From: Raja brachyura
Lineage: Eukaryota
Assembly: GCA_963514005.1 (NCBI GenBank)
Contig: OY740791.1
Span: 39,866,001-39,930,000, forward strand
Direction: 5' to 3'
DNA: 64,000 nt
In this document: piece after piece, positions 5,768 to 40,648 of the stretch
Layout of the letters: every line of letters starts with the position of its first letter
Position numbering within the stretch: the first letter of the stretch is position 1
Notes under the pieces: generated by a model
What the model was told of the DNA's origin: nothing
Databases searched by the model: none
Seen by the model: only the letters and a program-made list of their open reading frames with translations
Position numbers and translations under genes: made by a program

Positions 5768-5787
5768 TTAATTTTCTACTTGCTTAC
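5768..5787 (-). CDS. Probable last coding exon of the TIM-family gene (C-K-Q-V-E-N-stop)
   Basis: Acceptor ttatgtttctgattcatag|GT AAG CAA GTA GAA AAT TAA; phase 1 matches the TM exon donor. Too short to confirm from sequence alone. Confidence 0.45.
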
Positions 5788-6658
5788 CTATGAATCAGAA
5801 ACATAAATCTTAATGATCTTCGATCAATTCGAAATATTAATGATCTTTCAAGCATGTTTCGCAAAATTTATATATTAACCTGAAGCACAAAATGTTCCCA
5901 ATATTGATTTGGATTTTTCAGTAACAGAAACATCTTCATAAATTCAGTATTAATACCATAAAATTCTGAACTGCTATCAGACTTTCCATGTGGAAGTAAT
6001 TCCTGTATTCTATCCTGAAAGATCCAGTTTCAGTTTTAGCAATGCCATTTAATCCTATTCTCCCAATTCATTAGAAAATATTTCTTTCAATATCCGTCAA
6101 TTTACTTTAACACCTTGAAGACATTCGTGCAGGGTTTTACAATTGCTAAGATTACATAAACTTTCACCTAGAAATAGTTTCTTCCCACATTTAATCCAAT
6201 ATCATATCCTTCTCCCCAATATATCTTGCCTCGTCAACTTGCCAACCTCTATTACATATCTGTTCTCCATGTCTTTAAAATCATTTCTGCACCCCGTCCA
6301 TGATCTCTCCTCATTGTAAACCTGAATCATTCTCGAGCTCTGCCTCCTAGCATTAGTCTCCCATTCTTTTAATTCTCCTAATGTGCTGTCATTCCCCATC
6401 TCCACGATCAAAGGCTGGGGCCTTGGCCAATATAGATGGATGCTTTGAAATCCCCATCAATTTGGTTACATCTTTCCTATTTCTTCAAATGTGTAATTTT
6501 AATTCTTAAAATGTATTTTCTAATTAACCTAGCATTCATTCCCCTCCCCTGCCTTAACTCACATCCATGGTCACATGTTCCAAGTTAACAATAACTTGCA
6601 CAAATATCTCAACAAAGTGTTTTGAGTAAAAGGCAGGTTCCTAGACAGTGATACTTAC

Positions 6659-6767
6659 ATTTCCATTGACAAAGGAGCAGAGTGATTGAAAGAAAGCAGA
6701 TGAAAACTGAGACACGGGCTGCCCAGGCAAAATATGAAATCAGGATGTTTACCAACTCATCGGGAAC
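6659..6767 (-). CDS. Transmembrane exon of the TIM-family gene (VPDELVNILISYFAWAARVSVFICFLSITLLLCQWK)
   Basis: Acceptor tatctatttcag|GTT and donor AAA T|gtaagt; 109 bp; hydrophobic stretch followed by WK; phase 0 entry matches the phase 0 exit of exon 15459-15520. Confidence 0.75.
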
Positions 6768-6849
6768 CTGAAATAGATACACAATATCAGAGAACAAGCT
6801 TTTCTTCACTATTTTAAATCTAAAATGCAAGAACTGCAACCATTGACCA

Positions 6850-37226: not shown

Positions 37227-38083
37227 GAGAACGAACAGGGTGGGCGACAAAGCCTGGCTGCAGCTCTCCAGCGGCAATGGTAATAACACCAACCAACTTT
37301 GCTGGCGTCTGGTTGAACTGCAGGCGAATTAGGCTGATTTGAGCGCCAGCGGCCCCTGCTGGCGTCTGGTGGAACTGCAAGCCAATTTGGCTGGTTTGAA
37401 CGCCAGCGACCTCTGCTGGCATTGGTTTGAAATGCAGGCTGGCCGTACTGGGAGGACCTGCCTGCTGTGGAATGCGCAATGGCCGCCGGATTTTGCCGCG
37501 GGGGCCGACTGGGAGCAGTGAAGACCCGGTGGATAGCGGACCCGACCTGCTCTGAGTCTCCAAACGCCTCGGGAAGGACGTCCACTGCTTCCAGGTTGTG
37601 ATGGTGAGAATTCCACAGCTCGTCGGCTTGTTCACCCAGCGCCTGTATGTCGGTAAACGGATCCCTGGCGAGCTGCATGCGAATGTCGGGAGGCAGCTGC
37701 TGCAGGTAGGCATATTTAAACAGAAAGCACGGCTCATGGTCCCCCATCAGGGTGAGCATGTCTTCCAGGAGGGCAGACGGCCGGCGGTCGCCCAGACCGT
37801 CCATTCTGAAAATGCGAGCTGCCCGCTCGGCGTCACCCAGGCCAAACTTCCTGATGAGAAATGCTTTAAGGCCAGCATATTCGTTTGTAACCGGGGGGGC
37901 CCTGAGGAAAGGCTTAACTCACCTCGCAGTTAGTTGGTCAAGTGAGCCAACCACGTAATAATATTTAGTCTCATCCTGCGTGATACCTCTCACAGCAAAC
38001 TGTGCCTCTGCCTGCTGGAACCAGGTTTCGGGTTCTTCGGTCCACAGAGTTGGGAGCTTCAGCGCAACAGCGTTATTATCCAT
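37217..38083 (-). pseudogene. Gypsy gag with one premature stop
   Basis: ORFs 37919-38203 and 37217-37804 are in the same frame; TGA at 37919-37921 where the second copy has CGA; ends G GGA AAC TAA. Confidence 0.88.
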
Positions 38084-40300
38084 CACGATGCGTGATGAAC
38101 GACGTGGGGTCACCAGTGTAGTGGCCTGGTCAAGGTCAGGAAACGACCGAACGCCAGGCAGATTCGAAAGGAGCTTTTTAATTCTTACCGCTCGAGAGCA
38201 CACAAGGACACCTTATCTCTAACCGCTCGAGAGCACACCAGGACACCCTTATCTCTACCCCTGGAGAGTCTCAACAGCAAACCCCGTAGCAGACCAACGC
38301 CCCTGTCCTTCCATCGGCGAGGGGGATGATCCAAGGAGTGGCCTACCCCCCAGGGACTGCCACACCTTACTGTTGATGAAACGCAGTGAGCAAACGTGAT
38401 AATTCACAATATTTTCAATTCCGATATATGCACGGCCAATGTTCGCCAAGCACTTTAGCTGTTGTTGTCCCTTCAGCTCTCGCTTCTCTTTACCTTCATT
38501 TCGCTTCACTTTTGGAATTCTGAAGTTGGGTACGTGTCTCTCACACTTACCCCAACTTCCACAATTTTTTACAGCGCAAAAATTCAACATTTTGGTGGTT
38601 TTTAACAGGTAGGAAAGTACGCGTTTCTTGTATTAATAACATATGCCGGAAGTTACGGATGTCCTCCAGATGCATTGAGCGGCTCCGTGCATCAAGCCCT
38701 ATGACCCAGTGACCTTACGTGCAACCCCACTATAATTTCAATCTTGATATCTGCACGGCCAATGTTCACCAACCTCTTTAGCTGTTGTTGTCCCTTCAGC
38801 TCTCCGTTCTCTCTACCGTCATTTCTCCTCACTTTTGGAATTCTGAAGTAGGATAAATGTCTCTCACAATTACCCTGATTTCCACAATTATTGACAATAA
38901 ATGACAATTTCAGCGGTTTATAACGGGTAAGAAAGTATGCGTTTCGTGTATTAACAGTATATGCCGCAAGTGTCCATGTACTCCACATGGATTGAGCTGC
39001 TCCGTGCGTCACGCCCTTTGACCCGATTACCTTACGTGCAACCCCCGCTATAGAGAGGTTTCATGGCAGTCGGGTCACAACCCAAGACCCGTACAGTTGC
39101 TACGCTACACTAAGTGGAGTACACGCGATGAACTGCAGGTAAGCACTTATCATTGTTTCCAGCGCAGTGGCCCGTTAAAACCCGCCGAAATTGTCAATTT
39201 TTGCGCTGTAAATAATTATGGAAATCGGGATAAGCATGAGAGACATTTAGCCTACTTCAGAATTCCAAAAGTGAGGAGAAATGACGGTAAATAGAAGCGA
39301 GAGCTGAAGGGACAACAACAACCAGAGTGCTCGGCAAACATTGGCCGTTTGCTCACTGCATTTCATCAACTAAGGCATTATTTGTGTTTTTTCTTGATTC
39401 CTTTAGCATCTAAAAAGTTTCAGAAGTGATACATCTGGCTGTAACATTTTAAAATCGCCCATGATTCTCGTGGGTTTTTAGATACAAAAAGAAAACGCCT
39501 ATGAAGCAAAATTTACAGCCAGATTTATCACTTCTGAGACTTTTTAGATACCAAAGGAATCAAGAAGAAACACAAATAATGCCTTACTGTTGATGAAATG
39601 CAGTGAGCAAACGCGATAATTCACAATATTTTCAATTCCGATATCTGCACGGCCAATGTTCGCCAAGCACTTTAGCTGTTGTTGTCCCTTCAGCTCTCGC
39701 TTCTCTTTACCTTCACTTCGCTTCATATTTGGAATTCTGAAGTTGGGTACTTGTCTCTCACGCTTACCCCGACTTCCATAATTTTTCACAGCGCAAAAAT
39801 TCAACATTTTGGCGGAATTTAACAGGTAGGAAAGTAAGTGTTTCTTGAATAAATAACAAATACCGGAAGTTACGGATGTCCTCCAGATGGATTGGAGGCT
39901 CCGTGCGTCAAGCCCAATGACCGAATGACCTCACGTGTAACCCCCCTATATGCCGGAAGCTGCCATGTACTCCACATGGATTGAGTTGCTCCATGCGTCA
40001 CTCCCTTTGACCCGATGAACTTACGTGCAACCCCCCCCCCCCCCCCCCCTCCCCATATCCCTGGAACCTGTCGATCTGCTCCCCGCTCTTCTGCACAAGA
40101 GGCAGCTCAACCCACTCGCATATTCTTCGAACCTGGGAGAAAACCAGAACACGAGGGGAAACTGGTGGAGAACCTGCGAACTCCACACAGGTGGCACTGG
40201 AGGTTCGGATCGCACCTGGGTCAGACAGCTGTGAGGAAACTTTGTCAACAGCAACATCGTTGCGACACCAGAAATGAGACAGAAATATTGAGCTGCTTAC

Positions 40301-40648
40301 CATCCAAAACCAGGAGATTCAAATTCACTTTCACATCATTAAACGGTCCAGGGATCTCCACACGGCAGCAATACCAGCCGCCGTCTTCTTTCCGGGGCTG
40401 CTTCATCGTGAGCGACACGTCTCCTTGCTCAATGTTACCACCAAGCTGATATTTCTCGGATCCTGCTGAAGTTACTGTTGCTCCGTTTGTTTTAATCAGT
40501 TCAGCTCTACAGCCCGAGTAAGGGCACTCTCCCCGACCCCAGCACATCGCAGTTTTACCATACTTTCGGACAGAGTAGTGGCACGGCAGAGTGATCGCCT
40601 GTCCCGGGTATCCTCGCACTGGTGATCCGGTGACAAGGGCCACTCGAC
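40301..40648 (-). CDS. IgV exon of a TIM/HAVCR-family receptor (TIM-1/TIM-4-like)
   Basis: Six-Cys TIM signature LPCHY...MCWGRGECPYSGC...GDVSLT...YCCRVEIPGPFND; acceptor ctgtttcag|GT and donor GAT G|gtaagc; 348 bp, phase 1 to 1, no stops. Confidence 0.95.

Follow-up and report, generated by a model that had tools for sequence, protein, structure and literature searches.

The DNA stretch analysed (hereafter the window) comprises 64,000 nucleotides of the Raja brachyura genome (GCA_963514005.1, contig OY740791.1, 39,866,001-39,930,000; positions below are window positions) and carries a minus-strand gene of the TIM family whose transmembrane (TM) segment contains an arginine, Arg200 (hereafter the Arg gene). 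Six coding exons join into one frame encoding a TIM protein of 224 amino acids. A sequence-only reading had proposed a five-exon gene joined in frame with phases 1-1, 1-1, 1-0, 0-1 and 1-stop; all five exons, their AG/GT splice ends and their phases were verified, and the gene was extended by a sixth, leader exon (41482-41431) lying outside the range of that reading. The elements of the gene are:

41431..41482, minus strand: leader (signal peptide) exon, ATG at 41482, phase-1 donor; matches the N-terminus of Leucoraja P0016/P0017
40301..40648, minus strand: TIM-type IgV exon, phase 1-1, six Cys, FG-loop motif PFND, Pfam V-set E 9e-15
30937..31020, minus strand: Thr/Ser-rich mucin exon, 84 nt, phase 1-1; 90% identity to Leucoraja P0017 residues 150-178
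15459..15520, minus strand: stalk exon, 62 nt, phase 1-0; common to the twin gene (see below)
6659..6767, minus strand: TM exon, 109 nt, phase 0-1; single match in the genome at both DNA and protein level
6714..6716, minus strand: Arg200 codon CGT, within the best-scoring TM windows
5768..5787, minus strand: short tail exon from the proximal acceptor, phase 1-stop, 6 residues, no Tyr; same acceptor in Leucoraja P0017 and Amblyraja P0347
5512..5624, minus strand: alternative tail exon from the distal acceptor, 37 residues, one Tyr; its start matches Leucoraja X2 (P0016)

The same exon chain, with the Arg and the short-tail acceptor, was present in the public automatic models of Leucoraja (P0017) and Amblyraja (P0347), and the chain is therefore not a chance join. 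These two skates also provided the closest named relatives of the IgV domain in the homologue search (83% identity), while its best matches among solved structures were TIM-4 (E 2e-35), TIM-1, TIM-2 and TIM-3 (down to E 1e-20), followed by pIgR (E 2e-11). The IgV has the six conserved cysteines of the TIM family (22, 35, 41, 46, 93 and 94), and the leader-IgV-mucin-TM-tail order, also found in the orthologues, is the TIM architecture, which upholds the earlier assignment to this family. At the FG-loop lipid/metal site, the sequence is PFND where TIM-4 has WFND, the FND being retained and the Trp replaced; of the 38 domains from sharks and rays, 34 had the pattern xFND, its first place being taken by W, L, P, M or I. 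The mammalian TIM locus is linked to MED7 and SGCD. MED7 was found on the same contig, 2.0 Mb from the TIM gene, and the nearest sarcoglycan match on the contig is 35 Mb off.

A second complete TIM gene (the twin) lies on the same strand, approximately 34 kb downstream. Its leader, IgV, mucin and stalk are nearly the same as those of the Arg gene (84% identity for the IgV, with LFND instead of PFND in the FG loop), its TM segment is neutral, and its tail ends in EENIYQVS, where ENIY corresponds to the TIM-1-type tyrosine phosphorylation site (PMC4913284). According to blastn, the two genes share colinear blocks, mostly at 88-97% identity, from upstream of the leader down to position 8847, and have nothing in common across their TM and tail exons. 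The last of these blocks is:

8847..9027, no strand assigned: last intron block colinear with the twin; the homology stops approximately 70 bases ahead of the twin's own TM exon

Paralogues of this kind, linked, nearly the same in their outer parts and unlike in TM and tail type, are a classical feature of paired receptors. The leader-IgV intron differs at only 12 of 773 bases between the two genes, and the IgV exons at 20 non-synonymous and 2 synonymous sites (pN 0.078, pS 0.023; one-sided p 0.049), the changes being concentrated near the Cys41-Cys46 loop and the FG loop. In mammalian TIMs, the equivalent loop and the FG loop form the lipid pocket (PMC11575270). These substitutions suggest, but do not establish, positive selection on the IgV, because the comparisons with a third, orphan IgV copy were non-significant (p 0.25 against the Arg gene and p 0.12 against the twin).

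This third IgV exon (G000:C11:39953873-39954220, minus strand; L012) is intact and 90% identical; it is preceded by a partial duplicate and by a diverged leader-like exon near 39955065, and no accompanying mucin, stalk or TM exon was found. It could represent a conversion donor or a secreted form. A further copy lies upstream in the window:

63071..63949, minus strand: truncated upstream TIM copy, with an intact leader and an IgV exon that breaks off in a deletion after its first 45 nt

Mucin, stalk and TM exons were not found for this truncated copy. Decayed fragments of the IgV 3' end were present at 31533-31724 and 59268-59492, in the intron above the mucin exon of each copy, and are relics of an older tandem IgV duplication. 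On another contig, a distant TIM-like IgV (45%; G000:C38:10569996-10570319, plus strand; L016/L017) has the FG loop GPGND, with no TIM-like mucin or TM segment within 40 kb downstream. A V-set Ig exon unrelated to TIM (52263-52622, minus strand; single in the 214 kb examined) has the truncated copy on one side and the TIM leader on the other, and it matched antibody V domains and PD-1 weakly; a crude scan revealed no convincing TM exon between it and the TIM leader. An assignment of the Arg-bearing TM exon to an NKp30-like gene with this V-set exon (52.2-52.6 kb) was considered and rejected, as the orthologues join the TM exon to a TIM IgV. Large retroelement open reading frames (ORFs) occupy 20543-25261 and 33300-38400 within TIM introns; one element has recombinase- and reverse transcriptase-like frames (DIRS-like) and the other reverse transcriptase- and integrase-like frames with a 763-base duplication (Gypsy-like), both labels coming from reading the ORFs only.

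Arg200 was located inside the best-scoring windows of 19 (197-215) and 21 residues (195-215) on a simple insertion scale, whose values are approximate and ignore depth, in agreement with the membrane position proposed for this residue from the sequence. It stands 19 residues ahead of the first cytosolic Lys, with 17 uncharged residues on the Lys219 side, i.e. near the N-terminal end of the TM helix, as in the FcR-gamma-coupled receptors with an NxxR motif in their TM segment. The exact position of Arg200 in the bilayer is what we infer from this scoring. Six runs were found, all behaving as genomic contigs without splice joints; those labelled X1 and X2 may stem from the source of this DNA and were set aside as support. 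In the genomic contigs of two related organisms, a single base of the TM exon was changed (Phe to Leu), and neither the Arg codon nor the splice site on either side differed, while the flanks and the tail exons showed many changes. No RNA run was listed for 5200-6800, which is uninformative as to expression.

Two types of TM segment were distinguished among the 36 named shark and ray models: 16 have a TM of the Arg class and 12 one that was called neutral, while eight lack a TM segment. One of the 12 neutral segments is of the same type with His in place of Arg, so that the Arg is kept in 16 of 17 models of this type, belonging to 11 species from sevengill shark to manta; the conservation of the Arg in a shark and ray alignment, which the earlier reading had left to be checked, is thus established for these models. 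Both types occurred within one genome in Raja brachyura, Hypanus, two Mobula species, Hemitrygon, Scyliorhinus canicula and Heptranchias. In all seven within-lineage pairs (one of them formed by two Chiloscyllium species), IgV identity across types reached 84-100% and TM identity only 18-27%. The skate TM segment was closer to the Arg-type TMs from six further sharks and rays (51-68% identity) than to that of its own twin (25%).

Phylogenies of the two parts were discordant. In the IgV tree (22 rows), domains grouped by lineage, and a clade of the 13 Arg rows was rejected (p-AU 1e-41); in the TM tree (24 rows), TM exons grouped by type and the two types split with a support of 100/100. As old TM types lie beneath repeatedly equalised outer parts, we infer that recurrent gene conversion or exon exchange may have kept the outer parts of both genes alike while the TM exons stayed distinct. 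The exchanged tract in skate extends through the stalk exon, the skate stalk being of the twin's type. Two tandem TIM IgV domains were also observed in stingray P0004 and manta P0005, one model with an Arg-TM and the other with a Tyr tail.

Beyond sharks and rays, three homologue searches and one profile search yielded 304 TIM-like proteins, including 217 with a TM segment and a tail. Arg-class TMs were found in 45 of these 217, and 21 of the 45 carried NxxR, counts which include isoforms and relatives and were obtained with two queries built on Arg-bearing sequences, and which therefore describe a pattern and not a frequency. An ENxY tail was present in 2 of the 45 Arg-class proteins compared to 72 of the 172 others. 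The NxxR lay at a like TM position in bony-fish and frog TIMs, its named carriers including gar, bowfin, conger, bonefish, bass, tuna, cichlids, croaker and several frogs; bowfin P0242 passed only a 16-residue-window TM rule and not the rule used for the counts, which admits 15-residue cores. Three cichlid-type members were found on Logan contigs of 1.3-1.9 kb, with the IgV and the NxxR TM in one frame, and these contigs are probably transcripts. The earlier suspicion that fish TIM-like proteins may share the feature was thus borne out, and an Arg-TM is not special to this gene. No Arg-class TM was detected among 73 amniote TMs (from 87 named proteins, mostly songbird TIM-4; seven mammalian TMs), which weakly suggests a loss of the Arg-TM TIM in amniotes.

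Several other bony-fish and frog models deserve mention. Gar P0034 and P0035, annotated as isoforms X5 and X6, have near-identical IgV domains, but one continues into an Arg-TM and the other into a neutral TM with an ENIY tail; they are either splice forms of a single gene or the product of a merged model. The frog 'polymeric Ig receptor-like' proteins (P0002, P0003, P0067-P0079; approximately 460 aa) consist of TIM-type IgV domains in tandem (four each in P0002 and P0070) without a TM segment at the end, and are apparently secreted multivalent TIMs.

The tail of the Arg gene has two open acceptors, at 5787 (6 residues) and at 5624 (37 residues with one Tyr, in YELF). The earlier description of the receptor as having almost no tail applies to the proximal acceptor and has to be qualified for the distal one. 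No match to an immunoreceptor tyrosine-based activation (ITAM) or inhibition motif (ITIM) was found in the 6-residue or the 37-residue tail, and the ENIY site is absent from both. Leucoraja has one model per acceptor (P0017 for the short tail, X2/P0016 for the distal one). The short-acceptor tails of Leucoraja P0017 and Amblyraja P0347 count 11 residues, the Raja brachyura stop occurring five codons earlier, at a codon that encodes Glu in the relatives; the distal frame departs from that of Leucoraja P0016 after 12 residues. Both tail exons shift frame or stop among related skates, which fits a tail without a motif to conserve. In stingrays and mantas, tails of approximately 25 residues were found, Tyr-free in six of seven models. 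The distal tail of Leucoraja X2 (P0016) contains SIYWLL, which fits the ITIM consensus; the Raja brachyura frame differs there and lacks SIYWLL. The proximal tail exon opens with GTAAGC (5787-5782), so that joining it to the TM exon forms a donor site anew, almost the equal of the donor in the genome; judging from this junction, the short-tail form could be a re-splicing intermediate toward the acceptor at 5624.

Taken together, we favour with moderate confidence the interpretation that the Arg gene encodes an adaptor-coupled type I receptor of the TIM family, in which the Arg would pair with the Asp of an FcR-gamma (or CD3-zeta) dimer, and which would be one member of an ancient two-gene TIM pair. 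By analogy with known receptors, the IgV would bind phosphatidylserine or a related lipid, the TM Arg-Asp pair would recruit the adaptor dimer (FcR-gamma or CD3-zeta), and ITAM signalling would follow ligand binding. NxxR TMs associate with FcR-gamma, as shown by co-transfection of Xenopus FcR-like proteins (PMC2413239), and the module has been reported in the LRC, FCRL and SLAM families (PMC6557307, PMC4536121), TIM not being among the users named in the available parts of these two sources. NKp30 and NKp46 use a TM Arg with CD3-zeta or FcR-gamma, and NKp44 a TM Lys with DAP12 (PMC6514059); because of this Lys pairing, DAP12 would be a less fitting partner than FcR-gamma or CD3-zeta. A DAP10 family search returned weak matches only (E 0.175, with a stop, and E 0.716). 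The Raja brachyura genome contains two zeta-family TM exons with Asp, which we take to be CD3-zeta-like and FcR-gamma-like. Compared with its first formulation, the adaptor-coupled reading is strengthened by the twin with its neutral TM and Tyr tail and by the NxxR TIMs of bony fish and frogs, and is weakened by the Asn-free skate TM and the possible longer tail.

A number of observations weigh against this interpretation. The skate TM has Trp three places before the Arg, and hence no Asn of the NxxR type, and none of the 16 named shark and ray Arg-TMs has this Asn (Trp or Leu instead). A profile comparison between the shark/ray Arg-TM and the bony-fish NxxR TM gave a probability of only 6.8%, against 1.2-6.2% for the controls, and the four pairs with the frog set gave no match. 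Since the hydrophobic stretch is 29 residues long, other bilayer placements are possible, and the approximations of the insertion scale and the composition of the homologue counts described above call for the same caution. Two of the 45 Arg-class proteins combine the Arg with ENxY. A longer tail isoform is possible, and the tail of the twin, read by eye against the consensus, has no ITIM, so the two genes do not form a textbook activating/inhibitory pair. Lastly, the gene model is known in Raja brachyura from genomic sequence and from the automatic models of its relatives.

The strongest alternative, which we nevertheless consider unlikely, is a non-signalling tether or decoy, in which the Arg would be structural at the outer membrane interface and the receptor would hold lipid-exposing targets or compete with the twin. 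TIM-4 works as a tether, its tail not being needed. The missing Asn at -3 is consistent with this explanation, as are the segment ahead of the Arg, hydrophobic and mildly amphipathic, which could allow a different helix placement, and the short tails, whose frame changes freely among skates. However, 16 of 17 models from sharks and rays retain the Arg, always equally far from the cytosolic end, and bony-fish and frog TIMs carry NxxR at a like position, two facts not easily accounted for unless the Arg has a partner. The lack of Arg-class TMs among the 73 amniote ones likewise speaks against this alternative.

Recruitment of another partner by the Arg, i.e. DAP10, DAP12 or some further acidic TM protein, is improbable. 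In its favour, DAP10 pairs with a TM Arg in NKG2D. Moreover, the shark and ray TM has a conserved face of its own (Val at +1/+3, Phe, Thr, Leu and Trp-Lys), which differs from that of NxxR TMs. Against such a partner, an N-terminal TM Arg in type I Ig receptors goes with FcR-gamma or CD3-zeta and a Lys with DAP12 (PMC6514059, PMC6557307), and FcR-gamma-like and CD3-zeta-like exons are present in the genome. Least credible is a prediction artefact joining the TM exon of another gene, such as that of the V-set exon at 52.2-52.6 kb, or a silent or decaying copy: the large intronic retroelements, the truncated copy upstream, the stop at a Glu codon of the relatives and the automatic nature of the orthologous models would fit it, but every splice site and frame is intact, a TIM IgV is linked with a TM of this type in models from 11 species of sharks and rays, and the TM exon shows a single change in two related organisms where flanks and tail exons show many.

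If the adaptor-coupled interpretation is extended to the whole family, a broader scenario can be put forward, more tentatively, in which the TIM family of early jawed vertebrates comprised paired receptors, a Tyr-tailed member and an FcR-gamma-coupled activating one. Their lipid-binding heads would have been kept alike by gene conversion while the binding loops diversified, and the activating TIM would have been kept in sharks, rays, gar, bowfin, teleosts and frogs and lost in amniotes, possibly serving as a counter-receptor against TIM-exploiting pathogens that mimic apoptotic membranes. This scenario would also add TIM to the families using the NxxR membrane module. TIM-1, TIM-3 and TIM-4 are well-studied human lipid receptors and checkpoint targets, known either to use their own tails for signalling or not to signal. 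If a TIM is indeed coupled to an adaptor and paired with a Tyr-tailed twin, the family would once have had the paired design of KIR, LILR and FcR-like receptors. In cells of tilapia, bass or Xenopus, the wiring of one lipid-sensing head to two outputs could then be tested directly, and the automatic fish names HAVCR1-like and TIMD4-like would conceal two signalling classes. No description of Arg-TM or paired TIMs was found in the literature searched, which leaves out most subscription journals, so that a prior description is possible. Paired Arg-TM receptors and TIMs are each known already, and the Arg-TM form within TIM is what appears to be new.

Among known proteins, the closest are the orthologues annotated in RefSeq as 'TIMD4-like' (XP_055498902.1, Leucoraja) and 'HAVCR1 homolog' (XP_032885391.1, Amblyraja), which possess the same exons, Arg and short tail, under names that are silent on the Arg and on pairing. 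The mammalian and avian TIM-1/HAVCR1 and TIM-4 (PMC4913284) share the leader-IgV-mucin-TM-tail order, the six IgV cysteines and the FND of the lipid-binding FG loop; the twin resembles them further through its AED/ENIY-type Tyr site, whereas the Arg gene differs by its TM Arg, the lack of ENIY in the tail and a Pro as the first residue of WFND. NKp30 (NCR3; PMC6514059) likewise combines a single IgV with a TM Arg and couples to CD3-zeta or FcR-gamma, but its IgV is CD28-like and not TIM-type as in skate, and it has no mucin domain. The FcR-gamma-coupled NxxR receptors (LILRA2, PIR-A, NKp46, GPVI, OSCAR, Fc-alpha-R, Xenopus FcR-like and SLAM-like; PMC2413239, PMC6557307, PMC4536121) have the same N-terminal TM Arg in a type I helix, a short motif-free tail and a paralogue that shares their outer part but has a neutral TM, whereas the outer part in skate is a TIM IgV-mucin, the shark and ray TMs lack both the Asn and the acidic residue at the C-terminal side, and the partner gene carries ENIY in place of an ITIM.

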